Positions 7,509 through 50,760 of a stretch of 64,000 nucleotides of DNA are shown piece by piece. The notes beneath the pieces are model-generated. The model had not been told where the DNA came from. It did no database searches and saw only the letters and a list, made by a program, of their open reading frames with translations. Source of the DNA: a virus. Taxonomy: Duplodnaviria > Caudoviricetes. The position numbers and the translations under genes were made by a program. The first letter of the stretch is position 1. Each line of letters starts with the position of its first letter. The stretch lies in the IMG/VR virus record IMGVR_UViG_3300027566_000003; one strand, given 5' to 3'.

Positions 7509-7675
7509 GTTAAAATTTAATATTTTGCTATAGATAATATCTCTAACTATTAAATTATAGTTAGAGATATTTTTGTGTAACAAAATAAGTTGCACTAGGA
7601 TAGGTTGCTTTAAATTAAAGCACTGATAAGTATTACCCATACTTCCACTATAAAAATGGGTAAAGGAGGTTTGCA

Positions 7676-8449
7676 ATGTCAAATCAATTAGTAAAATTTA
7701 AGGAACTGGAATTAATGGAAGTGGATTTTAATAGCAATCTAATCATAGTCGTAAAAATGAAAGACACTGGTAAAAGTTATGTGGGCGTAAATTGGATTTG
7801 TAATGGGATAGGGTTATCAGAAGGACAATTAAAAAATGAGCGTAAGAAAATTCAAGAAGATATTGTCCTTTCTAAAGGGGGACGTAATTTAATCCTCCCT
7901 ACAAAAGGTGGTAATCAGCAGTCTTTATGTCTTGAGTTAGATTTTTTACCTTTATGGTTAGCGAAAATATCTATTACTAAAGATATGCAACAAAATAAAC
8001 CTGAAGTTATGGATAAACTTATTGATTATCAATTAAATGCGAAAGATGTATTATCTAAAGCATTTTTTGGAAAACAAGAAAAATGGGATTTGCAAAGAGA
8101 AGTTGGTAAAGTTGATAGAAAAAGAATGACTTCTAGTATCCAAACTTACATACCTAGTGCTAAACCTTTTACTTATGCTTCTTATACAGACATGACCTAT
8201 AAAATTTTGTTTAATATGACAGCAAAACAAATAAGAGAAAGTAGAAATATAAATAAAAAAGGTGATCTTACAAGAGATTATTTAACAGAAGCAGAATTAA
8301 AATTAGTTGATGAAGCAGAAACAATAGTTACTGCTTTGACGGCATTAGGATTTAAGCAAGATTATATAAAGCATCAGTTAGAAGTTAAGTATGGAAATAA
8401 AATGTTAGATGGTAATAAATTTTGTAAATTAGATAATAAAATAAAATAA
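7676..8449 (+). CDS. Antirepressor with P22 AR N-terminal domain
   Basis: ICNGIGLS and ILPTKGGNQQSLCLELDFLPLWLAKI. Confidence 0.85.
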   Translation: MSNQLVKFKELELMEVDFNSNLIIVVKMKDTGKSYVGVNWICNGIGLSEGQLKNERKKIQEDIVLSKGGRNLILPTKGGNQQSLCLELDFLPLWLAKISITKDMQQNKPEVMDKLIDYQLNAKDVLSKAFFGKQEKWDLQREVGKVDRKRMTSSIQTYIPSAKPFTYASYTDMTYKILFNMTAKQIRESRNINKKGDLTRDYLTEAELKLVDEAETIVTALTALGFKQDYIKHQLEVKYGNKMLDGNKFCKLDNKIK

Positions 8450-8719
8450 AATAAAATAACATCCCTAAATAACAAGACGCTTGAGTAATCAGGCGTTTTG
8501 TGTGCGTATGGAATGGTTGTTTTTGTTTGGATGTTTTGTGGATAAGTCGATATCTCAAGCAAAATGTTTGAGATATTTGTTATTCACTGAAATATGTGGA
8601 TCAAAGTTGAGAGGTAATTTGGGTTAGCTACCCATCTCTGTACGCCTCTCTTCTTTATATTTTTTTTATTTGGAAATTAGTACAGAGAAAATAAAAGTAC
8701 AGAAAGAAGGAATTTAGAG

Positions 8720-10507
8720 ATGTTGGTTAGCGAAGAAGTAGAAGTTACACTTCATCCATCAAATGTTAAACATTATGAAGATTTAGGTTATGAAATACCA
8801 AGAGAAAAAAATTAAAAAGAAACTTGTGATTCGTAAGGGTACAAAAATAAAGGTAAAAATAGAAGATCTTTTACCTGGAACTAATGTAAAGATTATGTAT
8901 AGATGTGATTATTGTGGAAAAGAAAAGTCAGTATTATATTGTGATTATACAAGGAGATCTTCAAAAAAAGACTGTTGTATTGATTGTTTACCTTTATATA
9001 ATTCTGAAATAAATAAATTAAAATGGGAAGAAAAATTTAAATCTGAAACGAAAACATGTAGTAAATGTAAAAGAGAATTTCCTAAAACGACTGAATATTT
9101 CTTTCGAAGCATAGATAGACCAGACAGTTTATCTTGTCAATGTAAAGAATGTGCTTGTGGAAAAGAAATATTCGGAATAGAAAAAGAAATTATCCCAGAG
9201 GGATTTAAAAAATGTTTAGATTGTAAAGAAGTTTTTGAAATAAATGAAACTAATTTTAATACTTATGTTAAATCTTCTGACGGTTTTTATAATATTTGTA
9301 TTAAATGTCAAATTAATAGAAGACATAAGGATTCTATAGATGGATATAAGAAGTGTAAAATTTGTAACAGAGAACTTGCTATCAATAGAGATTTTTATGA
9401 CGTAGATGATAGATGTTTAGATGGATATAGGGGTATTTGTCGTGAATGCAACGGCGAAGACTTTTATCCAGAATTTAAAGCAGATCCTTGGAGTCAAGAA
9501 GATATTGATATTATAATTGAAAATTATGAACATAAAACAATTAAAGATATATTACCTTTACTTACTTCCATAAGAACTGAAAAATCAGTAATGCACTTAG
9601 CACAAAATTAGATTTAAGAAAAATAGATAATCATATAAAATACTATAAGCAAATTCAGTATAAAATTATTGATAATAAATTACATAAATTATGTAAGTGT
9701 TGTGAGGAATACTTACCAGTAGATAGAGCATATTTTCCTGATGACCAAAAATGTACAGATAATTTAAGAAATGTATGCCGAGTTTGTAAAGGAGAGGAAT
9801 ATTTATTTGATTCAAATATTCATATTTGGACACAAGAAGAAACTACTATATTAATAAATAATTATTCTAGTATGACAAACAATGAAATAAGAAATAAATA
9901 CTTTCCGTTTCTAATAAATAGGCAAATAATGTGCAAAGGAAATAATTTAAATCTTTATAAAGCACAAGAAACGTTAGGTAGAATGTTTATTGAATTAGGT
10001 AAAATTACGTCAGATAGATTATTATCTTTAGATAAATGGAAAGGCGAAGATAATCCTCAATATGATAGTCAAAGATTTGGCAATCTAAATCCTAATTATA
10101 AAAATGGAATTAGTGCTTTGTCACAAGAATTAAGAAGAAATATAAAACAGTGGAAATTTGATAGTATGGATAATGCTAATTATAAATGTTTTATTTCAGG
10201 AAAGAATTTTGATGATATTCATCACTTATATAGTTTTGGAAGTATAGTTCAAGATACTTTAAATGAAACTGGAATACCATTATATGAGAATATCTCTTCA
10301 TATACACAAGAAGAATTACAACAATTAATTGATAAATGTTTGGAGATACATAATCGTTACCCGTTAGGGATATGCATGCAGAAAAAATATCATATCCAAT
10401 TTCATGTTGAGTTTAGGTATGGAAACAATACTCCTGAACAATTTTATCAATTCCTTGAAAATTATTATGATGGAAAATATAAATATTTGGAAGAAGTAAC
10501 TCAATAG
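8720..10507 (+). pseudogene. HNH-type homing endonuclease split by two homopolymer frameshifts
   Basis: ATG at 8720 follows GAAGGA. Removing one A from 8805-8811 joins it to ORF 8790; adding one A to 9604-9607 joins it through an open frame to ORF 9872. It has Cys-pair repeats and C-terminal DDIHHLYSF and HIQFH motifs. Confidence 0.8.
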
Positions 10508-10601
10508 TTCTGTTGACTATAAATGTATTATCTTTTTTTAGATAGTACATTTTTGTGTGACCAGAAATAAACAATTTAAGAATAAAAGGAAGTGAAACTT
10601 A

Positions 10602-11774
10602 GTGGCAAGACAAAAATCTGTGGCAACAAATTCGATTGTGCCACAAGTTAAAATTGAAAATAACACAATCACATGCCCTATGTGTGGAGAACCAAAATCT
10701 TCTATTAAAAGTGCTTTAAACTTTTATAAAAGTTTATCACCTTTGTATACAGGTATAAATCTAGAACGTGTTGACCAACCAATGATGGTATTTTGTAAAG
10801 AATGTGTATGGAATACTTATGATACATATTTCAATATTTTAAAAGATATTAAGAAATCAGTTCTTATTACTTGTATGAAGTTTGATATACCATTCAATGA
10901 AGGTGACTTTGATGGAGCAATGAAACAGTACGTAAATAAACCATCTGCTCATCCGTTTAAAATATATATGACAAAATTAAATTCATTGGGAAATTTCAAC
11001 AACGCTTTAACTGGTTTTGATCCAAAGTTCTTATTTGATAAAGAAACTGGAAAAGACCTTATTACTAATGCATTGGAACTTGAAGTAAAGGATTTAGATT
11101 ATAATGTTCAATTAAATGAACAGGATTTACAAGTTAAAGAAGATGTAATTAGACTTATAGGATATGATCCATTTGCTGGATATTCAAATTTTGACCAAAA
11201 GTTTTTATTTAATGAACTAATCACTTATCTTGACGAAGATACATTGGATGATGCTTTTAAATTAAGTCAGGTTTTACAATTAGTTAATAATAATAATCAG
11301 ATACGAAAAATAGATTTAGTAATTTCTACTCTTAGTAATGATGCTAAGACTTTAATTTCGAACCAAGGAGAAATAAAATCTTTATCTGCTACTAAAAGTC
11401 AAATAGTAGGTAGTACAGATAAGATTGCAAAAGAGAATTCTATTTCTGTAAAAAATCGTGGAGATAAATCAGCAGGAAAATCTACTCTCTCTAGTCTTAT
11501 GAAACAATATAGAGAACTTAATTTTGAAGATGCTGAACAAGATTATTATGATCAAAATAAAGCATATGGCATGAAAATGACAGCAGATATTTCAAATAAA
11601 AGTTTACTTGAACAATTACAGTTGGATGAAAATGATTATACTGATATGTTAAATACTCAAAGAGGATTGATCCAAGAGTATCAGTCTAGAATTGAAGATT
11701 TAGAAGAGGAAAATAGACAATTAAATGTATTGTTAGATAAAAATGAATCACCTTCTATTTTGGAAGGTGATTAA
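10602..11774 (+). CDS. Zn-finger protein upstream of terminase (YonG-like; possible small terminase role)
   Basis: CPMC and CKEC motifs; stop is 2 bp before terL. Confidence 0.7.
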   Translation: MARQKSVATNSIVPQVKIENNTITCPMCGEPKSSIKSALNFYKSLSPLYTGINLERVDQPMMVFCKECVWNTYDTYFNILKDIKKSVLITCMKFDIPFNEGDFDGAMKQYVNKPSAHPFKIYMTKLNSLGNFNNALTGFDPKFLFDKETGKDLITNALELEVKDLDYNVQLNEQDLQVKEDVIRLIGYDPFAGYSNFDQKFLFNELITYLDEDTLDDAFKLSQVLQLVNNNNQIRKIDLVISTLSNDAKTLISNQGEIKSLSATKSQIVGSTDKIAKENSISVKNRGDKSAGKSTLSSLMKQYRELNFEDAEQDYYDQNKAYGMKMTADISNKSLLEQLQLDENDYTDMLNTQRGLIQEYQSRIEDLEEENRQLNVLLDKNESPSILEGD

Positions 11775-11776
11775 TT

Positions 11777-13630: not shown

Positions 13631-13687
13631 AAAAACAAATAAAAATTACAAATACATAAATAATATTCACAGAAATGAGGTGAAATT

Positions 13688-15283: not shown

Positions 15284-15300
15284 AGGAAGGTGAATATTAT

Positions 15301-15846: not shown

Positions 15847-15848
15847 CT

Positions 15849-16046: not shown

Positions 16047-16079
16047 TTCTTTAAAAATATAAAAAAAGGAGGAATAATA

Positions 16080-25766: not shown

Positions 25767-25790
25767 TATTTTAGATTTAACAAACTAAAA

Positions 25791-25898
25791 AATGGTTTCT
25801 TATAAATTTGCGCAAATTTATAAGTGTAATTAAGAAGACTATATTATCCGAGATATAGTCTTCTTTCCCATTCTCTGATTCGGGAAGGAGAAAATAAT
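25791..25898 (+). promoter_or_regulatory. Leader RNA motif copy (palindromic hairpin plus RBS-adjacent pseudoknot)
   Basis: AATGG/CCATT closing stem, 26-bp palindrome at 25799-25824, 13-bp hairpin whose loop TCCGAG pairs with TTCGGG before GAAGGAG. Confidence 0.75.
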
Positions 25899-26909
25899 AT
25901 GTTAGAAACTAAAGAGTTAAATATAAAACTTTCATCAAAAAATATTAATTATTATGAACAATTGGGATATAACATTCCAAAATATAAAGACACTAGTGGT
26001 AAACAAAGAGTCAAAAAAGGAACTGAAATAAAAATTAAGATAGAACATTTACCATTACAATCACATAATAAAGTAGATGTTAAATGTGATTATTGTGAAA
26101 AAGTATTTCCAAAACCTTATTATTCTTACATTAATAGCAAAAATACATATGTAGTTAATAAAGATGCTTGTAATGATTGTAAATATATTAAGATAAAAGA
26201 ATGTAATTTAATTAATTATGGATATGAAAATACTTCACAAATACCTGAATATAGAGAACATCTTAGATTATTAAAACGAAATGATTTTGAGAAGGTAAAA
26301 CGAGATTTTGAGAATATGAATTTTACACTTTTGACAACAGAAGATGAATATATTAATTCAAGACAATCTATGAAATGTATATGCAATAATCATCCAAATA
26401 TTATTCAAGAAAAAGAGCATTTCCATACCACAAAAGACGTAGGTTGTAAATATTGTCGGGCAGAAAATATTTCTGGAGAAGGAAATTGGAATTATCAAGG
26501 TGGAATTACTCCACTTCACAACTATCTTAGACAACATATATTGCAATGGAAAAAAGATTCAATATTATTTTATAATGGAAAGTGTGTTTTGACTAATAAT
26601 ACAACGACTATAGTACATCATTTATATTCATTTAATTTAATATTGCAAGAATTAATTCAAGAATTAAAATTAGATATGGATTTTACTAAAATTAAAGTGG
26701 AAGATTTACCGGATGATCAATTAAAGTTATTAAAAGACAGATGTTTAGAATTACATTATAAATACGGGTTAGGTGTCTGTTTGTCCGATAATGTCCACAA
26801 ACTTTTTCACTCACTTTATTCTTATGGCAATAACATTCCAGAACAATTCACAGAATTCCAACAACGTTATAACAATGGAGAATTCACATCTCTCCTATTA
26901 GCAAAATGA
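25899..26909 (+). CDS. HNH-type homing endonuclease
   Basis: CVLT, VHHLYSF, VHKLFHSLYSYGNN; paralogous to 9872-10507 and 56156-56980. Confidence 0.85.
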   Translation: MLETKELNIKLSSKNINYYEQLGYNIPKYKDTSGKQRVKKGTEIKIKIEHLPLQSHNKVDVKCDYCEKVFPKPYYSYINSKNTYVVNKDACNDCKYIKIKECNLINYGYENTSQIPEYREHLRLLKRNDFEKVKRDFENMNFTLLTTEDEYINSRQSMKCICNNHPNIIQEKEHFHTTKDVGCKYCRAENISGEGNWNYQGGITPLHNYLRQHILQWKKDSILFYNGKCVLTNNTTTIVHHLYSFNLILQELIQELKLDMDFTKIKVEDLPDDQLKLLKDRCLELHYKYGLGVCLSDNVHKLFHSLYSYGNNIPEQFTEFQQRYNNGEFTSLLLAK

Positions 26910-30572: not shown

Positions 30573-30584
30573 TTTGTAATAAAA

Positions 30585-30688
30585 ATGGTTGTCTAATAAG
30601 GTTGCAAATTTATTAGACGTAAAACAAGAGTCATGCTGTCACATGACTCTTTTCCATGTAAAACTTTTTGACAGAAAAGGAGAAATAA
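30585..30688 (+). promoter_or_regulatory. Leader RNA motif copy
   Basis: ATGG/CCAT closing stem, hairpin with TTGCAA loop, 10-bp hairpin whose loop CTGTCA pairs with TGACAG before AAAAGGAG. Confidence 0.8.
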
Positions 30689-32161
30689 ATGAAAAAAGAT
30701 TTATATAAACATATAGATTTAACTAATATACCAAAAAATAAAAGCAGATATAATTGGTTAAATTCTATCGGTAAAGAATGTAAATTTATATATGATGATA
30801 TTTCTGGTTATGTTACAATAGTTGATTATAATTATAAGAAGCATAAATTGTATATTAAATATCTCGATAATGAGATTTTTGAAATTAATACTGATAATTT
30901 TTCTGATTGTGCTTTTGGTAAATTGTTAGGAAAAATAACTAGTGAATTTAAAATTAAATTAGGCAAAACTATAAAAAACAAAAAACAAGATTTTATTATT
31001 ATAGACAGGGAAAAACATATAAGTGCGAATAATAAGTGTTTTGATAAGATATATAAATATCATTGTAATAAATGTGGACATGAAGATTGGTTAATAGAAC
31101 ATAATTTATTAAAAGGAATTGGATGCTCCTGTTGCGGTATAACTCCTAAAAAAGTTATTGAAGGAATTAATGATATCCCAACAACTGCCCTTTGGATGGT
31201 TAAGTATTTTCAAGGTGGATACGATGAAGCAAAACTATATACAAAATCAAGCAGTAAAACAATTTTCCCGATTTGTCCTGATTGCGGAAGAATAAAGAAT
31301 AGACCTATGTCTATTAATTCAATTTATACAAATAAAACAATAAGGTGTACTTGTAAAGACGGTAGGAGTTATCCAGAAAAAATAATGTTTAATATATTGG
31401 AACAATTACATATTGATTTTTTAAGTGAATATTCTCCAGATTGGATTAAACCATTAAGATATGATTTTTATTTTGAATTAGGTAATAAAAAATATATTGT
31501 CGAAATGGATGGTGGTATTGGTCACGGAAATAAAGTAGTATATAATAATTCAATATATACCGTAGAATATGCACTAAACATTGATAATTATAAAGATAAC
31601 CTAGCAAATATTAATAATATAGATATTATTAGAATTGACTGTAAAATTTCTGATATAGATTATATAAAAACTAATATATTTAATACAAAATTGTTAAATA
31701 TATTAGAACTTTCAAGCATTGATTGGATAAAATGTGATGAATTTGCTTTAAGTAATTTAGTAAAAAAAGCTTGTGAAATAAAAAAAGAAAACGAAAATTT
31801 ATCAACATCTGATATCGGTTTATTATTACATTTAAATCGTAGTACAATATGTAAATATTTAAAAGAAGGAAGTAAATTTGGTTGGTGTAATTATAATCCA
31901 AATAATGAGAGAATGAAATCGTTAGGTCATAAAGTAAATATTAGGAAAGTTGAGGTATTTAAGAATGATACATCTTTAGGAATTTTTGAAAGCACAAATG
32001 ATATAGAAAGAAAAAGTGAAGCTTGCTTTGGAGTAAAATTATTACAGTCTTGTATATCTCTAGTTTGTAATGGTAAACAAAAATCACACAAAGGATTTAT
32101 TTTCAAGTATATAAATAACGAAAACCAAGAAGTGGTTAATAATTTATCCACTTCTTTTTAA
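30689..32161 (+). CDS. Putative homing endonuclease (Zn ribbons, DUF559/Vsr-like nuclease, NUMOD1)
   Basis: RYDFYF and IVEMDGGIGH motifs, CNKC and CPDC, C-terminal NUMOD1-like GIFESTNDIER and SHKGFIFKY. Confidence 0.8.
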   Translation: MKKDLYKHIDLTNIPKNKSRYNWLNSIGKECKFIYDDISGYVTIVDYNYKKHKLYIKYLDNEIFEINTDNFSDCAFGKLLGKITSEFKIKLGKTIKNKKQDFIIIDREKHISANNKCFDKIYKYHCNKCGHEDWLIEHNLLKGIGCSCCGITPKKVIEGINDIPTTALWMVKYFQGGYDEAKLYTKSSSKTIFPICPDCGRIKNRPMSINSIYTNKTIRCTCKDGRSYPEKIMFNILEQLHIDFLSEYSPDWIKPLRYDFYFELGNKKYIVEMDGGIGHGNKVVYNNSIYTVEYALNIDNYKDNLANINNIDIIRIDCKISDIDYIKTNIFNTKLLNILELSSIDWIKCDEFALSNLVKKACEIKKENENLSTSDIGLLLHLNRSTICKYLKEGSKFGWCNYNPNNERMKSLGHKVNIRKVEVFKNDTSLGIFESTNDIERKSEACFGVKLLQSCISLVCNGKQKSHKGFIFKYINNENQEVVNNLSTSF

Positions 32162-34742: not shown

Positions 34743-34767
34743 TAATTAACAAAATAATAAATTAAAT

Positions 34768-34875
34768 ATGGTTACTTAATAAGAGTCGACGCTTATTAAG
34801 TGTAAAACGAGAGACTATGCCGTTACATAGTCTCTTTTCCATTATATTTAATCTCAATGACGGAAGGAGAATAAA
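34768..34875 (+). promoter_or_regulatory. Leader RNA motif copy
   Basis: ATGG/CCAT closing stem, hairpin with GTCGAC loop, 10-bp hairpin whose loop CCGTTA pairs with TGACGG before AAGGAG. Confidence 0.8.
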
Positions 34876-35796
34876 ATGGGGAGAAAACTAACTAATGAGT
34901 TTATTAAAATAGGTGTCGAAAAATTAGGTTATAAATTAGCAAGTACATATGTTGGTCAATTAACAAAAATAACCATATATGATGAATTAGGATATTATTA
35001 TGTTGTTGGAGCAAAATCATTATTAAAAAATCATATTCCAGATAAATTTCATTTATTCAATCCTTACACAATACAAAATATAAAATTATGGGCAAAATTA
35101 AATAATAAACCTTTTGAATTATTGAGTGATACATATGAAGGAAGTGACAAATATCTTCGATGGAAATGTTTAAAGGAAGATTGCAGAGAAGAATTTGATG
35201 CAACTTGGAATAATATTATTAATAATAAAGGTTGCCCCTACTGTTCTGGGCATAAAGTAGGATTATCTAACTGTCTAGCAACTAAAAATCCAGAACTTAT
35301 AAAAGAATGGAATTTAATTAGAAATGGTAGTTTAACTCCTTTTGACGTAACTTGGTGTAGCGGAAAAGAAGTTTGGTGGAAATGTAAGAAATGTAATCAT
35401 GAGTGGAAAGCGAGAATAAGTAATAGAACTAGCACTAATAAAACAGGTTGCCCAGAGTGTAAAGAACCAAAAGGTGAAAAAGAATGTAAACGAGTTTTTG
35501 ACTTAAAAAATGTTTATTATATACCTCAAAAAGAGTTTGATGGTTTAATTGGATTAAGAGGTGGTTTATTATCTTATGATTTTTATTTACCTAAATACAA
35601 TTTATTGATTGAGTATCAAGGAGAATATCATGAATTTCAACAAAGCCATGTAAGTGAAAATAAATTTAAAACTCAACAAGAACACGACAGAAGAAAAAGA
35701 GAATATGCAAAAGACAATAATATTAAACTTCTAGAAATATGGTACTGGGATATAGATAAGATTGAAAAAATTCTTGAAAAAGAATTGTTTATATAA
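34876..35796 (+). CDS. Putative homing endonuclease (DUF4379-like Zn ribbon plus DUF559-like nuclease)
   Basis: NCLATKNPELIKEW and VWWKC motifs; YDFYLPKYNLLIEYQGEYH. Confidence 0.85.
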   Translation: MGRKLTNEFIKIGVEKLGYKLASTYVGQLTKITIYDELGYYYVVGAKSLLKNHIPDKFHLFNPYTIQNIKLWAKLNNKPFELLSDTYEGSDKYLRWKCLKEDCREEFDATWNNIINNKGCPYCSGHKVGLSNCLATKNPELIKEWNLIRNGSLTPFDVTWCSGKEVWWKCKKCNHEWKARISNRTSTNKTGCPECKEPKGEKECKRVFDLKNVYYIPQKEFDGLIGLRGGLLSYDFYLPKYNLLIEYQGEYHEFQQSHVSENKFKTQQEHDRRKREYAKDNNIKLLEIWYWDIDKIEKILEKELFI

Positions 35797-38491: not shown

Positions 38492-38677
38492 TTTAATTTG
38501 TTGTAGAACTTTAGACACTTTAGATAAGTGTCTTTTATTGTGCGACAAATTAGTTGTACGTAAACAGACTAGGGAGAGCTACCCGAAAGACACAACGCCT
38601 TAGTGTTTGTCTGTTTATTATCTTTTTGAGAAGAAATTTTAAGGTTAATAAAACAATATGAAAGGCGGTTGTTGGAG

Positions 38678-40245
38678 ATGTTAGAAACAAAAGAAGTAGA
38701 AGTAGTTTGGTCTAATTGGGGAAAAGAATATTATATTCTAAAAGGTTATTGTTTTACTAGAATAGGCGACGCATTTATAGTTAAAATTGAAGATGTGCAT
38801 CCTAATTCAAATATAACCATCGAATATGAATGTGATTATTGTAAAACACCCCAAAAAATATACTTTAGAGATTATAACAAACAAAAAAGAGATATTATAA
38901 ATAGAGATTGTTGCAGTAAATGTGCTCATTTTAAAGTTGCTGAAATAAAGAAAAAGAAAGCAGAGTTAGGAATATTAAATAAAACGATTCTGGTTATTGG
39001 AAGTTTTATCCCAATAGATTAAAAGAATTACATATATTTTTAAAAAATAATAAATTTGAAGATATCTTTAATATTGGTTATTCACAATTAAAAGAATCTT
39101 TTTATCAAAATAAAGATAATGTAATTGATATGATATTTGAATTAAAATTAAATATTTTTGAAGTATGCAATAATTTACATAAGTTATATTTCTACATTAA
39201 TGAAAATAACATACAAAATATTATAAATATTTTTATTGAAAGGCATAAATACTTTCCTTCCCTATTAGAAATGTCAAATAATTTACAAATTTCTTATTCA
39301 ATTTTAGCTAAATGTGGTGGTTATTATTATATAAAGAATAGTATGGGATATTATGATAATGACATTGGTAGTAAATTATTAGATACAAAAAATAGTATGG
39401 AGAATTTTGAAAAATATAAAAATGTTAGTGGTATTTATAAGATAACTAATATTAAAAATGCAAAAGTGTATATTGGGCAAGCAATAGATTTGTGGCATAG
39501 AATTAGTTCTGGATATATTTATACATTGCCTAAAGGAAAATGTCACAATGTTCACCTTCAAAGAGCGTGGGATAAAGACGGAGGAGAAAGTTTTTATATA
39601 GAAGTTATTGAAGTTTGTGATGTTGAATTTTTAACGAAAAGAGAACAATTTTGGATTGATCAAACTCAATGTTTTAACAACAAATTTGGTTATAATGTTT
39701 TGGAATTTGCCGAAAGTAATAGAGGTGCTAAAATATCTGAAGAAACAAGGAAAAAGATGAGTGATGCTTCTAAATTAAAATTCGGGTGGAATCATACACA
39801 AGAAACAAAAACTATTTTATCAGAAAAACATTCTAAATCTATTATTCAATTAAATTTAGATGGTATTTATATTAAAGAGTGGAAAAACTCCAATGATGCG
39901 TCAATTACATTAACTGGTAAAAATACAAGTGCTAATAATATAAGAGATTGTGCAAATGGGCGAGGTGCTTCAGCTTGTGGTTACATATGGATATATAAAG
40001 ATAAGTATAATGAATTAACTTTTGACAAAATGGATTATGAAAATAGAGATACAACTAAACGAAGGGTTATTCAATTAAGTTTAAGTAATGAATATATAAA
40101 AACATTTAGGACAATAACTGAGGCAAAAAATACAACAAAAGCAAGTAATATAAGTGCATGTTTAAATGGTTTACAACATAAAAGTGGTGGATTCAAATGG
40201 ATGTATGAAGAAGATTATTTAAATAAAATAAAGGAAGTGAATTAA
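38678..40245 (+). pseudogene. GIY-YIG homing endonuclease (NUMOD3 plus 2x NUMOD1) with one frameshift
   Basis: Adding one A at 38981-38984 gives a continuous frame into ATG 39130. Motifs SGIYKITN, VYIGQA and EETRKKMS. Confidence 0.8.
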
Positions 40246-40249
40246 ACTA

Positions 40250-41311
40250 ATGGCAAACAAAGGTCGTGGAAGAGTATATAACCCAATCTATACAAAGCAA
40301 GAATGGGAATTAGTAAATCCCAAAAACAAAGAAGCAATGAATGACTTTCTTGAAGAATATAAGCAAAGAAAAAAGAAGAAGTCAACTATTGATGCTTACT
40401 TTCAGGATTTGAGAATTATTCTACTTTATGTTAAAAGATTTTGTGATAATAAATGTATATTTGATTTAGGTAAAAAGGATTTTAGGAGAATTAGCATTTG
40501 GTTTAGTGATGATTTAAAACTATCTAATGCAAGAGCAAATAGATTAATGAGTGCGGTTAGGTCTATGCTTTCATATGCAGAAGATGATGACGAAACAGAA
40601 TATGACAATAATGTTGCTCGTAAGGTGAAAGGTTTACCGAAAGAACCAGTTAAAACAAATGAAGACGATTTCTTTATGACATTTGATCAAGTATGGAGAG
40701 TTAGAGAAGAATTATTAAAACGTGGTAAATTACAGCTTGCAGTTTTACATATGCTTCTATTCGATTCTGGTGGACGAAGGAATGAAGTATATCAGATTAA
40801 AAAACAAGATGCTCAAGAAGGAAATAAGACAAATATAGTTGTTGGTAAAAGAGGAAAATCATTTCCTTTAGTATTTTTAAATGACACTAGAGAATTAGTA
40901 AGACAGTTTATATCAGAACGTGGCGAAGACAATTTAGATGCTGTATGGATAACTGGTAAGGGTGAAAATAAAAGAGAAGTAACGTACGGAGCTTTATATG
41001 ATAGAGTTGTTGCTATTTCTGCTATATTGAGTGAATTAGAAGGAAAAGAATTAAATATTTTTCCGCATTCATATCGCCACAGTCGCGCAGAATGTCTCTT
41101 ACAGGGGCAAGATCCACGTATCATTGATCCGTCTACGGGATTGCCTAAGAAGTTTACTTTAGAGGAAGTCCAGCTATTTCTTCATCATTCAGATCCGAAA
41201 ACAACCCAAGATTACGCGAAAGATCATAGTGAAGAAATGATTGATACCATGTTTAATTTTGATGGTGAAGTTAAAGTTAAGAAACCGGAAGAAATCACAC
41301 CAACAACATAA
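40250..41311 (+). CDS. Tyrosine recombinase/integrase
   Basis: SGGRRNE, HSYRH and LHHSDPKTTQDY; the catalytic residues are present. Confidence 0.93.
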   Translation: MANKGRGRVYNPIYTKQEWELVNPKNKEAMNDFLEEYKQRKKKKSTIDAYFQDLRIILLYVKRFCDNKCIFDLGKKDFRRISIWFSDDLKLSNARANRLMSAVRSMLSYAEDDDETEYDNNVARKVKGLPKEPVKTNEDDFFMTFDQVWRVREELLKRGKLQLAVLHMLLFDSGGRRNEVYQIKKQDAQEGNKTNIVVGKRGKSFPLVFLNDTRELVRQFISERGEDNLDAVWITGKGENKREVTYGALYDRVVAISAILSELEGKELNIFPHSYRHSRAECLLQGQDPRIIDPSTGLPKKFTLEEVQLFLHHSDPKTTQDYAKDHSEEMIDTMFNFDGEVKVKKPEEITPTT

Positions 41312-41443: not shown

Positions 41444-41563
41444 TGTGCTGTAAATCGCACTAAACACTAGCAGGAGTAATGGCTTAATTACCCATTATCA
41501 AAGGGTACTCTCCCCTATCCTGCTAGTCAATATCTTTTAGTGAGAGTAAAATAAGAAAGAGAG

Positions 41564-43537
41564 ATGATATTAATAATGATTAATTACAAAGAATTTCTAG
41601 AGCAAATGGAACTTGAAACAAAGAAAAATCATGTAATAGAAGCAGTAAACTTGACAATTAAGGACTTGGCAGAATATAATGTAATTGTACCAGAAGATAG
41701 TGAATATTACAAAGGATTAAGCCAATTACTTTATTATATAATGTTTTACCCGTTACCTAATAAGAAAGCAATTATTAACTTTCCTACGGGTTGTGGTAAA
41801 TCAACTGCTATGAATGCAGGAATTTCCTATATGTTAAGAAATAAAATATTACAACCATACGCAGGAACAATAATATTAAAACTTACAAAAGATGATTGTA
41901 ATGAAACAGTTAGAGAAATCAATAAGAAAGCAAAATTAGATTTAGCATATGCATATCACTCTGGATTTGATAAACTAAACAATAGAAAAAGAAGTGATAT
42001 TTCTAATGATGAACTAAAAGAATATCCAGTAATTGTATTAACTCATAGTGGATATTTACAACTTATTGACAAAGATGATATAAATAAACTATGTGAATGG
42101 TCTGATAAAAGAATTAATACAAAGCGTGGAAAATATAATACATATTATAGGGAGAGATTAATTGTGGATGAAGCAATTAATAATGTTCAATTTATGACAG
42201 TTACAATGAAGTCAATTTCTGATATGGAAAATGCAATCATGAATATGGGAAACGAAGATATTTATGATAGATTTAATGGATTCGTGACCAAAATCAAGAA
42301 AGAATTTTTGAAATCGTATGACACGAAGAAGAACAGTGTATTCTTTTGCGAGTTCGACAATATCGAAGTACCAGATGGGTTAGATGAGTTATTTTTCTCT
42401 TGTAAAGATAAACAAGCCAAAGACTCATATATGGCAATAAGAACAATGTTAGCAACTGGTGGTTATGTAAATATTCATGAGGATATTAAGTATAAATCAA
42501 TCATCACCTACAAGTACATAGATATTAATAATCCATATTTCCATAAAGTAACATTAGATGCTACATCAGGAATTAATTATCTATATGAAATTGATAGCAA
42601 TTCAGAAGTAAGAGATTTGCCGCAAATAAAATCTTATAAGAATATGCATCTAAATATATTTAATGGAGTCACCGGATCATCTGCTTCAATGAAAAAAGGA
42701 TTAGAAGATGGATTGTTAGATGCAATCATTGAAGATATTAAGAGTAAGATTATTGGGGAAGAGAAAGTTTTGATTGTAACTAATAGTGAAGAACGAGATA
42801 AAATGATTATTGAAGCATTAAAGGGATATGAAAAATTAGACCAAATTGATGTCACCCACTATGGACGTACAGTAGGGAGTAATAAATGGAGTGATTTTGA
42901 CAAAATATTTGTATTAGGGATTCAATTGTTACCAGATGCAATATATCCTTTAATGTATTTCACTAGTTCTGTAAAAGAAGAAGAATTAACAGCAGAGAAA
43001 TTTAATTCATTAGATACTACTCTTGTTCCAATAAAAGGCAATAGAAAATACAAACAAAAAGAATTTGAGAAAGTTAAAGTGTCTACTATTTCTGCAATGG
43101 TTGTGCAAACTTTAAACAGAATCAAATGTAGAGGTTATGCAGATGGAGAAATTCCTGAGACCCACGCCTATTTCATAAATCGTGATAAAGAGATAGATGC
43201 TCTCATTGCCCAAGCGATGCCAGATATTCAAATTACGTATAATTGGGGAATTGAATATAAGTCAAGAAAAAGTGGAAAAACAGTAGAGAACAAGAAGGAT
43301 GTTGTTGAGACATTAATTGAATTCTATGAGAAATTTAGACTTGACGAAAATTATAGAAATAAATTATTTGTCGATGAAATTTTTACTGAAAAAGGATTAA
43401 GTAAAGCAAAAATAAAAGAATTATTAGATATTAAGACAAATACTTTTAATATTTCTATGAGTAAACCTTTGATGTTGCAATATGTAAAAGATTATAATAT
43501 TGATTTAATCTCTAATAATAGATATGTAAAATTTTAA
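41564..43537 (+). CDS. SF2 helicase-like protein, candidate replication initiator
   Basis: PTGCGKST, IVDEA, LDATS, HYGRTVGSN and QTLNRIKCR motifs. Confidence 0.75.
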   Translation: MILIMINYKEFLEQMELETKKNHVIEAVNLTIKDLAEYNVIVPEDSEYYKGLSQLLYYIMFYPLPNKKAIINFPTGCGKSTAMNAGISYMLRNKILQPYAGTIILKLTKDDCNETVREINKKAKLDLAYAYHSGFDKLNNRKRSDISNDELKEYPVIVLTHSGYLQLIDKDDINKLCEWSDKRINTKRGKYNTYYRERLIVDEAINNVQFMTVTMKSISDMENAIMNMGNEDIYDRFNGFVTKIKKEFLKSYDTKKNSVFFCEFDNIEVPDGLDELFFSCKDKQAKDSYMAIRTMLATGGYVNIHEDIKYKSIITYKYIDINNPYFHKVTLDATSGINYLYEIDSNSEVRDLPQIKSYKNMHLNIFNGVTGSSASMKKGLEDGLLDAIIEDIKSKIIGEEKVLIVTNSEERDKMIIEALKGYEKLDQIDVTHYGRTVGSNKWSDFDKIFVLGIQLLPDAIYPLMYFTSSVKEEELTAEKFNSLDTTLVPIKGNRKYKQKEFEKVKVSTISAMVVQTLNRIKCRGYADGEIPETHAYFINRDKEIDALIAQAMPDIQITYNWGIEYKSRKSGKTVENKKDVVETLIEFYEKFRLDENYRNKLFVDEIFTEKGLSKAKIKELLDIKTNTFNISMSKPLMLQYVKDYNIDLISNNRYVKF

Positions 43538-44155: not shown

Positions 44156-44173
44156 GATTTTTATAATAAAAAA

Positions 44174-44199
44174 AGAGACTCTATCCCACTAGAGTCTCT
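44174..44199. terminator. Terminator between convergent genes
   Basis: AGAGACTCTA/TAGAGTCTCT 10-bp stem. Confidence 0.7.
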
Positions 44200-44255
44200 A
44201 AAAACTAATATTTTATTTATCTATTTATTATATCCCACTTTATCTTCACCTTATA

Positions 44256-45068: not shown

Positions 45069-45264
45069 ATTATTTATTACCTCTTTCTTTTAATTAATTA
45101 TTTTTGTATTTATTGATTATGATTATGATAATTTTATGATCATGTTTTATCACATATGTAAAATCCACATTCAAGTATCATCTCTGATTTTGTTAGAACA
45201 TCTAAAGTTTTTATTTTTATCTATAATCATATCCATTATAATCCCACTCCTCCTTCCCTAAGTA

Positions 45265-45293
45265 AGTATATAATAAAATTTTCCATATGTCAA
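45265..45293 (-). promoter_or_regulatory. SigA-type promoter (leftward)
   Basis: TTGACA-17 bp-TATACT on the minus strand. Confidence 0.8.
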
Positions 45294-45313
45294 TAAGAGC
45301 AAAAATAAAATAT

Positions 45314-45342
45314 TTGACATATGTGGCACTAAAGTGTAATAT
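45314..45342 (+). promoter_or_regulatory. SigA-type promoter (rightward)
   Basis: TTGACA-17 bp-TAATAT. Confidence 0.65.
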
Positions 45343-45482
45343 AATATTGTTGGTGGTAGGATTATTTGTTTATTATTATTCCTTCTCCTGATTTGATTCT
45401 GTTGTAGATACATATGTTTGAAGTTTTGATGAGCATATGAGGGTTGTGGTATAATGGTAGTAGGATAAGGAGTGGTTGGGAT

Positions 45483-45767
45483 ATGGATAAAAGTGTAGAC
45501 AATTTAAATCATAAAGATTTAAAAGTTTATTGTAATAGAGGGCAAATCAATAAAAAAATGGACGGAAGAAGAATTCAATGGTTAGTTGAAAAGTTAAAAA
45601 ATTATGGAATAATTATAGAATACAAAGCTCTTGTTCAATTACTTAATAATCGTAGTGAATGGAAATTAATATATGCTATCGGGCTGTGCTATGTTTTTCA
45701 ATCAAAAATTGGTGACTTATTTTTTTTGGATAGTGAAGGGGAAATTATAGATATTGATTTTGTATAA
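45483..45767 (+). CDS. Putative HTH (Cro/CI-like) regulator
   Basis: LVQLLNNRSEWKLIYAIGLCYVFQSKIGDLF resembles the end of an XRE HTH domain; start uncertain. Confidence 0.55.
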   Translation: MDKSVDNLNHKDLKVYCNRGQINKKMDGRRIQWLVEKLKNYGIIIEYKALVQLLNNRSEWKLIYAIGLCYVFQSKIGDLFFLDSEGEIIDIDFV

Positions 45768-45774
45768 TTGGATA

Positions 45775-45803
45775 TTGACAATATCCATGTACTCCTGTAT
45801 ACT
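45775..45803 (+). promoter_or_regulatory. SigA-type promoter
   Basis: TTGACA-17 bp-TATACT. Confidence 0.8.
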
Positions 45804-45857
45804 ATTATTAAGTTAAGGTAAACAAATCAATCATCCTTAACAAATTAGTATAGAGGA

Positions 45858-46505
45858 GTGTTTGTGATGAGAAAACAACCTAAAGAATTATCCTACGACG
45901 ATAAAATGGAATTAGATTTACTTGAAAATTTAGAATTCAGAACATGTCATTTGTGTAATGAGATTAGACTCAATGGAGATATTCATATTTCTTGGGCAGA
46001 TTTGTGTAGTATCCTTTCTCCTTCCGATCCAAGCAAAATAGCTGATAAGATTTTTGCTCATATCAACAAAATGAAAATGTTTAATAGTGATTTATATCAT
46101 GAAATTTATGACGCAATTTATGATATTGGGAATGTCGAGAAAGACGGAGATAAATTTTATAATTGCGATGTGTTGTGGATTAGTTCTATAAGTCATATTA
46201 TTTATGAGAATTTTAGAGAACAATGGAAGATTATTATTAAGATAATGCATGAGATACATAGAGAATATGGTGGGAGTTTTGATTTAGGTTTCTTGTTTAG
46301 AGAAACTATTTTAACCATGAGAGAAAAATGTTTGATTGGTGATGATTTGTTTACTTGTGAATATGAGTATAAGAAGTGTAAGGGTGATGGTGAGGATAAT
46401 AAGGATGAAATAGATAAGGTTTATGAGGATTATTATGGGGAGGAAGAATATGATTGTGGGTTTGAAGATTTAGAATTTGTGAGTGATAAGAGGATTTTGC
46501 ATTAA
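45858..46505 (+). CDS. Hypothetical protein
   Basis: 215-aa ORF downstream of the promoter. Confidence 0.7.
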   Translation: MFVMRKQPKELSYDDKMELDLLENLEFRTCHLCNEIRLNGDIHISWADLCSILSPSDPSKIADKIFAHINKMKMFNSDLYHEIYDAIYDIGNVEKDGDKFYNCDVLWISSISHIIYENFREQWKIIIKIMHEIHREYGGSFDLGFLFRETILTMREKCLIGDDLFTCEYEYKKCKGDGEDNKDEIDKVYEDYYGEEEYDCGFEDLEFVSDKRILH

Positions 46506-46584
46506 TGGGTAGATTGTGATTATTCTGGCTTGATATTATGGGGAGTTTATTCTCCCCTCAAATTAAATGAAAGGTGGTGAATAT

Positions 46585-48027
46585 ATGTCAAACTTTGTTT
46601 TAACTCTACCATTAAAAACCGAAACATATCAAGAAGATATTTTAAGTAAGCGTTTTGAAATTGGGAGAAAAATGTATAATGCTTGTTTAAATGAATTATA
46701 TAAGCGTTACAATACATTAAGACAATCAAAAGAGTACCAAAAAGTTTGTAAAATGACAAAAGGTAAAGAACGGAATAAGCAGTTTCAAGCATTAAACAAC
46801 AAATACGGTTTGACAGAATATTCACTACATGATTTTGTTAAACCTATGCAACATAAATACAAGAAAAACATTGATGCATTTACTTCGCAAAAAGTAGCTA
46901 CAAGATGTTTCTCGGCATTTCAAGGCTTAATGTTTCATACAGCTAAAAAAGTTGGTTATAAATCTTATAATGATTTAGATTCTTTAGAAGGAAAATCAAA
47001 TGGTACTGGAATAAGATTTATAGACAATGTGCTATTGTGGAATGGATTAAAAATATCTGTAGTAATTAAAAAGAATGATACTTATGCTAAAATGTCTTTA
47101 GAAAATAAAATAAAGTATTGTCGTATTGTACGTAAAATGATAAAAGGGAAAAATCATTATTATATTCAGTTGATTTTAGATGGTATTCCTCCAATGAAGA
47201 TAACTAAACAAGGTGAAATTAAAGGGAGTATAGGCAAGGGTAATGTAGGAATTGATATTGGAACGCAAACAATTGCTTATAGTAGTCAATATCAAGTCAA
47301 ACTTCTAGAACTAGCACCAAACATCAATAAAATTGATAGAGAAGTTAAATTACTCCAGCGTAAAATGGACAGATCGAGAAGAGCAACAAATCTTAATAAA
47401 TTCAATGATAATGGTACTATAATTAAAGGCAATAAAGATAAATGGGTTTATAGTAACCATTACATTAAAATTAAGAACGCTAGAAAAGAATTATTTAGGA
47501 AACAATCTGCACTTAGAAAGCAGTCTCACAATATTTTAGCAAATGAGATCATTAATTTAGGCGATAAATTCTATGTTGAAAATATGAGTTATTCTGGATT
47601 GCAGAAAAGAAGTAAAAAAACTACTAATAAGAAAAATGGAAAGTTTAATAAGAAGAAGAGATTTGGTAAATCATTAGCGAATAAAGCACCTTCAATGTTC
47701 TTAACAATCTTGGACAATAAACTTAAATGGAATGACACCCAATTGTATAAAATTGATACAGTAAAAATTAAAGCAAGTCAATATAATCATATTGATGATG
47801 TTTATGTCAAAAAGGACTTGTCAGAAAGATGGAATGATTTTAGTGAATTTAAGATTCAAAGGGATTTATATTCAGCATTTCTGATAATGAGTGTGAATAA
47901 TGATATGGAAACAATTAATAGAGATTCGTGTTTTGAGAAGTTTAATGAGTTTAAAGTGTTGCACGATATTGAGGTTGAAAGATTAAGAAGTTTGGATTTA
48001 AGTAAAGCATTAAGAAATGTAATCTAA
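46585..48027 (+). CDS. tnpB: TnpB-family RNA-guided nuclease (long, no Cys zinc finger)
   Basis: RuvC residues GIDIG, YVEN and QRDLYSA are present; start at ATG after GAAAGGTGG. Confidence 0.88.
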   Translation: MSNFVLTLPLKTETYQEDILSKRFEIGRKMYNACLNELYKRYNTLRQSKEYQKVCKMTKGKERNKQFQALNNKYGLTEYSLHDFVKPMQHKYKKNIDAFTSQKVATRCFSAFQGLMFHTAKKVGYKSYNDLDSLEGKSNGTGIRFIDNVLLWNGLKISVVIKKNDTYAKMSLENKIKYCRIVRKMIKGKNHYYIQLILDGIPPMKITKQGEIKGSIGKGNVGIDIGTQTIAYSSQYQVKLLELAPNINKIDREVKLLQRKMDRSRRATNLNKFNDNGTIIKGNKDKWVYSNHYIKIKNARKELFRKQSALRKQSHNILANEIINLGDKFYVENMSYSGLQKRSKKTTNKKNGKFNKKKRFGKSLANKAPSMFLTILDNKLKWNDTQLYKIDTVKIKASQYNHIDDVYVKKDLSERWNDFSEFKIQRDLYSAFLIMSVNNDMETINRDSCFEKFNEFKVLHDIEVERLRSLDLSKALRNVI

Positions 48028-48248
48028 CAATTAAATAACGGTTTAGAAACGAGCCGTATGCTATCGTTAATTTGACCAATGGGTTGATTGATAGTGAAAT
48101 TCTTATGGAAAATGATTAGTGTTTATATGTTGTAAAATACAGATGAAATGTAATGCCTGTAAATGAGAGTATTAAAGAAAATTATTTAGTACATAAGAAC
48201 CCCATGCCTTTAGGCGTGGGAGTTTCAGATCTAGAGGCCAAGATTATA
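48028..48248 (+). ncRNA. omegaRNA scaffold, IS200/IS605-type right end and guide
   Basis: Hairpin ACGGTT/AGCCGT, then CCCATGCC-TTTA-GGCGTGGG (48201-48220) followed by TTCA(G). Confidence 0.7.
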
Positions 48249-48370
48249 TATTTAAACGGTTAGAAAAACTCAAAAAGAAAGACTTGCAATTACAGCAAGC
48301 CAATTAAGAATTCATGCAAATTAAGTATATCACAGATTCATAAAGTAATCTATAAAAGGAGGAAATTTAT

Positions 48371-48499
48371 ATGGACGATAAAGAAAATTTTTTATCTGAA
48401 ATTAAAATGATGATTGAGTTGGATGAGATGTTAAGATTTAATCAGATATTCTTTAACAGTGTTAAAGAACAAATATTAATATCAAATTTAATGTCGTGA
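48371..48499 (+). CDS. 42-aa ORF upstream of vapD
   Basis: AAAGGAGG RBS, ATG to TGA; not in the supplied ORF track. Confidence 0.5.
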   Translation: MDDKENFLSEIKMMIELDEMLRFNQIFFNSVKEQILISNLMS

Positions 48500-48584
48500 G
48501 TATTTTGATTTTAAATTGGAAATACTGTTGATATATGGAAAGGAAGGTGATATGATGTTTAAAAAGATTAAGGGAGGAAAATCA

Positions 48585-48881
48585 ATGTATGCTATTGCTT
48601 TTGATTTAGATACACAAATTTTAAGTGAAAACTATGATAAACAACATTATAACAACGCATACAACGAGATTAAGCTTTATTTGTCAAGTAAAGGTTTTGA
48701 CCGACAGCAAGGTAGTGTTTATTTTGGTAATGAATCAATTGATGCCGTAAAAACTGTTTTAGTTGTTCAAGGTTTGGCAAGGAAATATCCATGGTTCGCT
48801 CCATCTGTAAAAGATATTCAGATGTTGAGAATTGAAGAGAATGGTGATTTGTTACCAGCTATTTTAGGAGCTAATGATTAG
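48585..48881 (+). CDS. vapD: VapD (Cas2-like fold) nuclease
   Basis: MYAIAFDLD, GFDRQQGSVY, WFAPSVKDIQMLRIEE. Confidence 0.92.
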   Translation: MYAIAFDLDTQILSENYDKQHYNNAYNEIKLYLSSKGFDRQQGSVYFGNESIDAVKTVLVVQGLARKYPWFAPSVKDIQMLRIEENGDLLPAILGAND

Positions 48882-48913
48882 ATTAGAGGTTAATAATTTA
48901 ATAGTTTGTTTTT

Positions 48914-48941
48914 AAAAGAACCTAGATTTCTAGGTTCTTTT
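48914..48941 (+). terminator. Intrinsic terminator after vapD
   Basis: AAAAGAACCTAG/CTAGGTTCTTTT. Confidence 0.8.
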
Positions 48942-49148
48942 ATTATGCCCAAATTTAATATTGATAGTTTTAGCAGACCTTTGGACGCTCTGGTTTGCTA
49001 TTAAATAAGCAACAATCTGCAATTGCAATGCAGTAGAAGGGAATACACTCCTCCCTTCTTTTTTTTGTTGCCTTTTTATATGGAATTGTTTGGAGTGTGG
49101 GTTTAGTAATGAGTAAGAATATAAAATTTGAAGGAGTGCTGGAATTAT

Positions 49149-50760
49149 ATGAGAATTAAATGGTCAAAAGAAGAAACGAATTTTTTAAAAGATAATTACA
49201 TGGTCATGACAGATGAAGAATTGGCGGGAAAACTAGGAAAAACAACGATACAAATAAAAGATAAGAGAAATCATGAGCATTTAGTAAGGATAACAATTTT
49301 TTCCAAAGAATTTTTAATATCTGAATTTTGGCGTTTCTTTAATGAAAATGAAAGATATCCTTTAAAAAAAGAATTAAAACCAGCAATTGGTTATCCATCA
49401 GGAGTTAATTATGAACGTAAATGGGGAAGTTGGAATAGTTTTTTAAAAGAAATTGATGTATTAGGTGACAGTGGGTGGTATAAATGTGATGAACAAGTTT
49501 TGATTGATTATTATACTAATAGTTCCATCGAAGAGATTAATGATAGATTAATGATTAAACGTAATAAAGAAATAATAATGAAAAAGGCAAACAATTTAGG
49601 ATTATACATAAAAAAAAGAAGTAGTGAAGAATATCAATTAATTATCCAAGATTATTTAAATGGAACAAATTGTCAAGAAATAGCTAAGAAATATGGATAT
49701 AGTGATGGAGCTTCAATATATTATGTTCTTAAAAAATACAACATTGAATTAAATAGAAATGATATATGGTCTGAAGAACAAATAGAAAATCTTAAAATAT
49801 ATTACCCCTACAACAGAATGGGAGGAATTGTTAGAATTATTAAAACCATTTGATAAAGATGGAATTATACATAAGGCATCAGATTTGAATATAAAAAGAT
49901 TGCTAAATTCAGAATGGTCAGAAGAAGATATTAATATTTTGAAAGAATATTACGGAGAAAAATCTACAAAACAATTAGCAATATTATTGCCATATCGTAC
50001 AGAATCATCAATAGTTACAAAAGGATATAAATTAGGATTAGAGTCAAGAATAAGATGGTCTGATGAAGATATAGAAATATTTATCAAAGAATACCCAATT
50101 AAAACAAATAAAGAGTTAGCAAACATATTTAATAGGACACCTACTGCAATCATGGGAGAGGCGTTAAAATTAGGATTAAAGAAAGATATTGAAGAACATT
50201 TATATATTATATATGATGAAGAAAAATTAATACGTGAATTAAAGGAGTATGCTCAAATTTTAGGAAGAACACCTCTTTCATACGAAGTAAATGAAAATAA
50301 AAATATGGCACATTCCAATACATATAGACGTTGTTTTGATGGTTATGTTGATGCTTGTCAAAAGGCAGGTTTAGAACCAAATTATGAAGGAAATATATTT
50401 TCTCCAAGGACATATAGATCAAAAAATAATGATTTGTGTCTTTCGCAGCCAGAATTAATTATTACTAATTTATTTATAGATAATGTTTTAGAGTACGAGA
50501 AAGAAGTATATTATTCGTCTTTTTCAGACGATCCTAGGTGTGGTTATAAGAGATGTGATTGGTTTTTAGTAGATGGTATAATTGTAGAATATTTTGGTAT
50601 GGAAAGGAGAGAATCTTATCAAAAAAGAATGTTAGAAAAACAAGCTATATGTTCAGATAATAATTTAATATTAATAGAACTTTATCCAAAGGATATGAGA
50701 AAAGGGCTAGAAGGTTTAATAAATAAATTTAAAGAGTATGGTATTGAATTAAGTCAATAA
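49149..50760 (+). pseudogene. Putative homing endonuclease with tandem W-x-x-E-E HTH repeats and one frameshift
   Basis: Removing one C from 49805-49808 gives YYPTTEWEELLELLKP, fusing the two ORFs. C-terminal RCDWFL and IVEYFG nuclease-like motifs. Confidence 0.75.

Follow-up and report, generated by a model that had tools for sequence, protein, structure and literature searches.

Genes and leader RNAs of the window

The analyzed window is a stretch of 64,000 nucleotides (nt) from the virus record IMGVR_UViG_3300027566_000003 (Caudoviricetes) and corresponds to the minus strand of bases 2261-66260 of a 122,175-base-pair (bp) IMG/VR virus contig, with 29% G+C. According to PHROG and Pfam, its genes encode tail and other virion proteins and are interleaved with many selfish genes, including several families of free-standing homing endonuclease genes. 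The present analysis deals with structured leader RNAs in the spacers directly before these selfish genes. The initial annotation had taken eight palindromic words in the window as self-complementary hairpin loops of one set of leaders, which might dimerize by loop-loop (kissing) contact. All eight words are present at their positions, and a palindromic loop in the first hairpin of a leader was confirmed for seven of the eight sites, while the eighth (site H) is not a leader and its word lies mostly within a stem. The eight sites are also not a single set, but comprise two leader classes (I and II) and this one non-leader. Among public sequencing runs only a groundwater metagenome, which may be its source, matched the window, and no RNA data set was among the matches.

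Folding of the spacers at six of the sites (A to F) resulted in a common three-way junction, in which an outer stem P1 surrounds the two hairpins P2 and P3 (z scores of the fold from -1.8 to -5.6). The junction is followed by a U-rich tail, a spacer of 20-75 nt and a Shine-Dalgarno sequence, and at all six sites the palindromic word lies in the apical loop of P2, the hairpin that comes first. All sites described here lie on the plus strand of the window.

Leaders A, B and C form class I, which is characterized by the conserved sequences AAUGGUU, GUAAAAC and UUUCCAU. Leader A (25790-25873; P2 25799-25824, P3 25832-25865) precedes a homing endonuclease gene (25899-26909), and its P2 is a perfect 26-nt palindrome centered on TGCGCA (25809-25814; z score -5.5). 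Leader B (30583-30660; P2 30590-30619, P3 30626-30651) is followed by an endonuclease gene (30689-32161) and carries the P2 loop G-TTGCAA-A with the hexamer at 30602-30607. In the case of leader C (34766-34845; P2 34773-34802, P3 34809-34836), located before an HNH endonuclease gene (34876-35796), the P2 loop is A-GTCGAC-G (hexamer 34785-34790).

Leader D (38562-38631) is a member of the Rfam family int-alpA, with a P2 stem GGG/CCC and the loop AG-AGCT-A (AGCT at 38577-38580). The genes behind it are an endonuclease fragment (38669-39022), a GIY-YIG endonuclease (39130-40245) and a tyrosine integrase (40250-41311). Leader E (41467-41531; z score -4.4) shows the int-alpA architecture without a match to the Rfam model and precedes a gene for a protein of 657 amino acids (41564-43537); its P2 loop CT-TAATTA-C (hexamer 41485-41490) is identical in the relatives L193 and L248. 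Leader F (49009-49077; z score -3.7), with the P2 stem CTGCA/TGCAG, the loop A-TTGCAA (49023-49028) and a run of T after P3, is located before two genes (49128-49853 and 49828-50760) that both contain homing-endonuclease-associated repeats.

Leader G (8609-8658) comprises P1 and P2 with the loop T-TAGCTA (8625-8630), but no P3. The endonuclease gene behind it (8720-9611) is frameshifted, starting at 8720, stopping after 31 codons and resuming at 8790. Leader G is therefore a decayed copy of the leader, which has lost P3 and stands before a broken nuclease gene. Site H (7590-7660, AATT at 7613-7616), upstream of an antirepressor gene (7676-8449; Pfam P22_AR_N), was rejected as a member of the family, since its fold is no better than that of shuffled sequences (z score +0.49) and AATT is largely part of a stem.

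A fixed-window scan of the genome for three-way junctions, which was not exhaustive, recovered leaders A, C, E and F; an earlier, more permissive scan had yielded mostly noise. One further closed three-way junction was observed outside the window (G000, window coordinates -3115 to -3052), with UAAUUA in the loop of the second hairpin and only CAUG in that of the first.

Relationship to int-alpA

Leader D reached 39.5 bits with the int-alpA model (RF02996), compared to a gathering score of 35.8, and the relatives L112 (48.4 bits), L100 (44.6 bits) and L087 (38.3 bits) also lie above this score. For leaders A, B, C, E, F and G, no int-alpA match was obtained at E-values up to 10. The int-alpA motif reportedly originates from Weinberg et al. 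(2017), as a candidate structured RNA of unknown function, and in the literature searched it is mentioned solely as an annotation. The leaders described here share with it the stem P1, two hairpins, a U-rich 3' tail and a neighborhood of mobile-element genes. The junction signature UA / GAAAA / CU recurs to a varying degree: leader D shows UA / GAAAG / UU and many relatives UA / GA(A,U,C)AA, whereas the junctions of leaders E and F differ and those of class I are unlike int-alpA. A second difference concerns P2, which in the int-alpA consensus is a short stem with a 5-nt GACGU loop, while most leaders here have a long P2 with a palindromic loop of 7-10 nt. A short P2 with a loop of the GACGU type was not found in the leaders of the window, since the loop of leader D comprises 7 nt (AGAGCUA) and those of the other leaders 7-10 nt. 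Altogether, the sites are copies of a modular, int-alpA-like three-way-junction leader RNA on the plus strand, located before homing endonuclease genes and elsewhere before an integrase gene.

Relatives in other phages

A first DNA pattern for class I gave 83 matches, only two of which were real, and a second pattern returned the same two: the contigs L062 and L063 from IMG/VR, where a class I copy is located before an HNH endonuclease gene. Two larger, independent samples of related leaders were collected from IMG/VR. For sample 1, a profile of the nuclease proteins led to 56 loci. Their upstream regions comprise 45 distinct sequences, and a three-way-junction leader is present in about 27 of these. 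Sample 2 was obtained with a pattern of the junction sequences (AGGGATAG … GAHAAG … YYCCCT), which is independent of the nuclease and blind to the P2 loop; it comprised 79 distinct matches, with 36 of them folding as closed three-way junctions. Among ten genes checked behind the leaders of sample 2, nine encode homing endonucleases and one an integrase. In the alignment selected by this pattern, P1 is invariant.

A search with the tail sheath protein found no related phages, and blastn with two of the leaders, aimed at a cultured phage, gave no match or chance matches. By tblastn, relatives of the nuclease behind leader C were detected in Herelleviridae and in Lactococcus phage AM1. Five of these loci were fetched; three are located between split terminase genes and four contain structured spacers resembling group I introns, while a three-way-junction leader was found in none of the five.

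Self-complementarity of the P2 loop

As a check, the initial annotation had proposed to count palindromic loops among homologous leaders against shuffled controls. In sample 1, a 6-nt palindrome was present in 23 of the 27 P2 loops with at least 6 nt, compared to 2.6 expected from shuffled loops, and none of 20,000 shuffles exceeded ten palindromic loops. Sample 2 showed nearly the same picture, with 24 of 28 loops compared to 2.4 expected. Pooled, this corresponds to 47 of 55 P2 loops against about 5 expected, i.e. an approximately ten-fold enrichment. The lack of enrichment among homologous loops, which the initial annotation had named as grounds for refuting its proposal, was thus not observed. 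Counting only distinct loops, 14 of 19 in sample 1 (1.4 expected) and 14 of 18 in sample 2 were palindromic.

The hexamers are not copies of one word. Eleven different ones were determined (UGCGCA, UUGCAA, GUCGAC, UAGCUA, UAAUUA, UCAUGA, UGAUCA, UUAUAA, UUCGAA, AUCGAU and UCGCGA), and their variation is compensatory. In class I, the three symmetric pairs of the hexamer are 100% complementary, each of them with a double change. In class II, the symmetric pairs are 95.9% complementary, with the second pair occurring as AU (12), CG (8) or GC (3) and the central pair as AU (17) or GC (6). These compensatory changes at symmetric positions indicate that the hexamer sequence drifts while its self-complementarity is kept, and selection almost certainly maintains the self-complementarity of the loop.

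The enrichment could in principle be a functionless by-product of the way in which hairpins arise, either by template-switch "correction" of inverted repeats or by extension of the stem. This would fit the perfect palindrome of leader A and the fact that every hairpin derives from an inverted repeat. However, the P3 hairpins of the same leaders contain no 6-nt palindrome in their loops (0 of 25 in sample 1 and 0 of 22 in sample 2, 0 of 47 in total). Hairpins in general show no excess either. The window strand of the whole phage carries 269 hairpins with loops of 6-10 nt on stems of 8 bp or more, and a 6-nt palindrome was present in the loop of 9 of them, compared to 11.9 expected from shuffled loops (base rate about 4%). 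Moreover, correction would extend a stem from its base, so that neither mismatches nor asymmetric flanks are expected beside a perfect center, and stem extension cannot yield palindromes whose axis is offset from that of the stem, as described below. This explanation is strongly disfavored and hardly credible.

The format of the loops resembles that of the dimerization initiation site (DIS) of retroviruses, as had been noted in the initial annotation. Purine flanks dominate among 23 distinct loops, and 9-nt loops with the pattern AG-N6-A are present. On the 5' side, 22 of the distinct loops have a base next to the palindrome, which is a purine in 16; on the 3' side, 16 loops have such a base, and it is a purine in 14. 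The exceptions are loops of the forms CU-N6-C and AU-N6-C. The more specific claim of a mismatched purine pair beside the palindrome holds for leaders B (G/A) and C (A/G), while elsewhere the flanks are asymmetric, for example in AG-N6-A. The palindromic words are predicted to be accessible, with probabilities of 0.73-0.97 for being unpaired.

RNA structure versus DNA operator

As a second possibility, the initial annotation had suggested an operator for the downstream DNA-binding protein. According to this explanation, the P2 repeat would be a DNA-level operator or recombination site bound by a dimeric protein, e.g. the product of the gene itself in the sense of autoregulation. Indeed, the leaders are followed by genes for DNA-binding proteins, and the dyad axis of the class I stem coincides with that of its hexamer, leader A being a perfect 26-bp palindrome.

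Several observations point in the other direction. In the class I alignment, 99.4% of the paired positions form pairs and 20 of the 25 pairs show double changes, which was reached by none of 500 shuffles; P2 and P3 thus covary strongly, and their arms change by compensation instead of staying conserved. G-U pairs in the leader stems occur on this strand only; in class II, 14 of 25 sequences have G-U as the closing pair of P2. Since a G-U pair on this strand is an A-C mismatch on the other, this favors RNA over DNA. Furthermore, in AG-N6-A, C-N6 and AG-N6 loops the axis of the palindrome is shifted by half a base or a full base against that of the stem, an offset of at least half a base being seen in 7-nt loops, 9-nt loops and 8-nt AG-N6 loops. 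Accordingly, a single DNA dyad cannot serve both stem and palindrome. The hexamer also does not track the protein family, as UAAUUA is found before a helicase-like gene as well as HNH genes, and the nucleases of phrog_559 carry six different hexamers. Finally, the element is part of a larger RNA fold, the other loop of which is paired to the ribosome-binding site (see below). The operator explanation is therefore disfavored, and we consider it very unlikely.

The position of the element in the transcript is indicated by contig L063, in which a promoter sequence with 12 of 12 positions of the sigma-70 consensus (TTGACA-17-TATAAT, L063:3562-3590) ends 5 nt before the three-way-junction leader of the HNH endonuclease gene. 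A promoter at this distance implies that the leader starts its transcript and that the cassette has its own strong promoter. Other promoter-like sites were at the level expected by chance in AT-rich DNA, the sole outliers being this one and a site in L123 (10 of 12). Judged from the sequence, the nuclease message begins with this element. In a terminator scan, P3 was flagged in L063 and was not flagged in the class I copies of the window. Taken together, the covariation of the stems, the G-U pairs, the offset axes, the mismatch between hexamer and protein family and the promoter in L063 argue for an RNA structure, and it is very probable that the leader acts as such.

Predicted pairing partners of the P3 and P2 loops

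For the P3 loop, a contiguous complement of 6-11 nt was found 4-50 nt before the start codon in 29 of 29 leaders examined. This complement often adjoins or overlaps the Shine-Dalgarno sequence, and the mean length of the match before the start codon was 6.8 nt, compared to 4.9 nt for shuffled loops. Loop and site covary across the 29 leaders, as can be seen from pairs such as CUGUCA with UGACAG, CCGUUA with UGACGG or UAACGG, CCUAUA with UAUAGG, ACACUCC with GGAGUGU and UACUCUC with GAGAGUA. In the window, the partners of the class I loops are TTCGGG (25879-25884) in leader A, TGACAG (30669-30674) in leader B and TGACGG (34858-34863) in leader C. In leader D the loop CGCCTT matches AAGGCG (38662-38667) at the ribosome-binding site, in leader E TACTCTC matches GAGAGTA at about 41542, and in leader F ACACTCC matches GGAGTGT at about 49092. 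These complementarities suggest that the P3 loop and the ribosome-binding site form a pseudoknot, which probably gates translation.

The P2 loop showed no such complement before the start codon (mean match 4.7 nt, compared to 5.1 nt for shuffled loops). TGCGCA occurs once in the 64 kilobases of the window and GTCGAC twice, and in sample 2 only 4 of 24 leaders have a second copy of their hexamer within 300 nt. Since the palindrome complements itself and a partner in cis is missing, the sole available partner is the same loop on another molecule.

Kissing of two leaders as the favored explanation

The enrichment of palindromes, the covariation within the loop, the missing partner in cis and the RNA strand are best explained by homotypic loop-loop pairing between two copies of the leader. 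We assign this kissing interaction, as deduced from sequence patterns and predicted structures, a probability of roughly 0.55.

The predicted pairing strength differs considerably between the loops. Hexamers containing G or C range from -4.1 to -7.5 kcal/mol, and the 8-nt palindromes of leaders A and F reach -10.3 and -6.5 kcal/mol, although nearest-neighbor rules do not model kissing complexes. About one third of the loops consist of A and U only, and for UAAUUA and UUAUAA just -0.4 and -0.6 kcal/mol are predicted for the isolated duplex; for such loops Mg2+, stacking or a protein would be needed for pairing. Further observations also weigh against kissing pairs. The hexamer of leader A continues into the 26-nt palindrome, so that only GCGC is predicted to be open. 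The canonical short int-alpA forms L087, L112, L107 and L249 possess a GACG tetraloop instead of a palindrome, which means that the palindromic loop is not universal in the family, and L110 lacks the palindrome in spite of its long P2. In addition, both samples include related sequences and the counts are not fully independent, although the fractions of distinct loops (14 of 19 and 14 of 18, as given above) remain high.

The weakness of the A/U-only hexamers, which seem unable to pair unaided, could instead be taken as an indication of a protein. The loop would then be recognized by a two-fold symmetric protein of the host or the phage, which reads the tip of the hairpin or a transient duplex, or it would be the substrate of a structure-specific RNase, and the self-complementarity would reflect the symmetry of the protein and not a dimerization by RNA only. 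The form U-NNNN-A, found in 8 of the 11 hexamers, is a possible recognition feature of such a factor. However, with 11 hexamers and nine different 4-nt cores, the protein would have to ignore the sequence and yet sense its self-complementarity. A lone single-stranded loop has no two-fold symmetry, and pairing with a second copy would again be a dimerization. This explanation is considered unlikely.

In the proposed kissing mechanism, both apical loops would be used for base pairing, each with its own partner. The P3 loop would form the pseudoknot in cis beside or over the ribosome-binding site and thereby control translation. The P2 loop would expose a self-complementary word of 6 nt (sometimes 4 nt), mostly with unpaired purine flanks, and the kissing partners could be two messenger RNAs (mRNAs), or else one full-length mRNA and a short leader RNA that arises by termination or processing. 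Dimerization of the leaders might then subject the nuclease gene to a control set by the amount of its own leader RNA. Three roles of the dimer can be envisaged: it could stabilize or release the pseudoknot of the P3 loop with the ribosome-binding site and make translation dose-dependent, a short leader RNA could dock onto the full-length message in the manner of the c4 RNA of phage P1, or the dimer could offer a long coaxial helix cleavable by RNase III. That dose sensing is the purpose of the dimer is a speculation which appears rather unlikely. The complete picture, in which the leaders would form RNA homodimers in nature, each cassette having its own six-letter "address", and translation of the nuclease would follow the level of this RNA, is possible but doubtful.

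Most leaders of this phage differ in their hexamer; yet leaders B and F share UUGCAA, and leaders D and G share AGCU. Cross-pairing between these cassettes is therefore possible.

While int-alpA has been an orphan motif since 2017, both of its loops now have a concrete and testable pairing partner. Should the kissing interaction prove true, the leaders would be the first regulatory element in mRNAs of phages or bacteria that dimerizes with itself by a kissing loop, and they would add a dose-dependent, RNA-only layer to the restraint of selfish nucleases in phage genomes. A set of at least 11 natural dimerization loops, orthogonal to each other, would moreover be ready for use as tags.

Further structured elements of the window

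In the phage tail region, a TnpB gene (52707-53897; 396 amino acids) with OrfB_IS605 and Cas12f1-like TNB domains was identified, and 47 nt behind it a RAGATH-18 RNA (53944-54011; 56.5 bits). A TnpB gene followed by a RAGATH-18 RNA is the arrangement of RNA-guided IS607 TnpB nucleases (PMC11061315). At 3030-4055, the window contains about 1 kilobase without long open reading frames and with a strong fold, in which a RAGATH-27 match (3054-3139) remained below the threshold with 59 bits compared to the gathering score of 76.1. A spacer of 348 nt (56981-57328), located between an endonuclease-like gene and a gene for a protein of 1255 amino acids, also folds strongly (-80.6 kcal/mol); it showed no Rfam match at E-values up to 10.

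Comparison with known systems

In T-even phages, the ribosome-binding sites of homing endonuclease genes (I-TevI, segB and mobE of Aeh1) are sequestered in a leader hairpin. As in the present case, a selfish nuclease gene amid essential phage genes is restrained by a leader RNA that pairs its ribosome-binding region. The T-even leaders are, however, simple hairpins, which are relieved by an internal late promoter, and we know of no description of a three-way junction or a self-complementary loop for them.

A compact multi-stem leader RNA is found in the immI operon of phages P1 and P7, where the loops of the c4 antisense RNA pair with downstream ribosome-binding-site regions. Like the leaders described here, c4 is encoded in the leader and uses a loop to pair a ribosome-binding region, and its specificity is said to shift by matched substitutions in loop and target. 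In contrast to the P2 loops, both c4 loops reportedly target mRNA and none is self-complementary. The Rfam model of C4 gave no match in the window at E-values up to 10.

The prohead RNA (pRNA) of phage phi29 is likewise a phage RNA with a three-way junction, and it oligomerizes by intermolecular loop-loop pairing (PMC7357161). It differs in that two different loops interact hand in hand and in that it is part of the packaging motor instead of an mRNA leader (PMC7357161).

The closest resemblance of the loop itself is to the DIS of HIV-1 and to the loop in the 3' untranslated region of oskar, which share with the P2 loops a 6-nt palindrome in an apical loop, unpaired flanking purines and natural compensatory variation (PMC7357161). 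In HIV-1, the purines flanking the palindrome are required for dimerization, and occlusion of the start site is linked to the dimer state (PMC7357161); the pairing of the P3 loop with the ribosome-binding site might be comparable. On the other hand, the loops of HIV-1 and oskar are GC-rich and their dimers are experimentally proven (PMC7357161), while many of the palindromes here consist of A and U only and the loop lengths vary from 7 to 10 nt. The context also differs from that of HIV-1, being the mRNA leader of a DNA phage without any role in genome packaging.

Functional homodimers of RNA seldom occur in nature (PMC7357161), and the literature search found no report of a self-complementary loop for int-alpA or for any other phage or bacterial mRNA leader. 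Altogether, the self-complementary loop of this leader class appears to be new, while the kissing-loop principle and the control of phage endonucleases by their leaders are already known.

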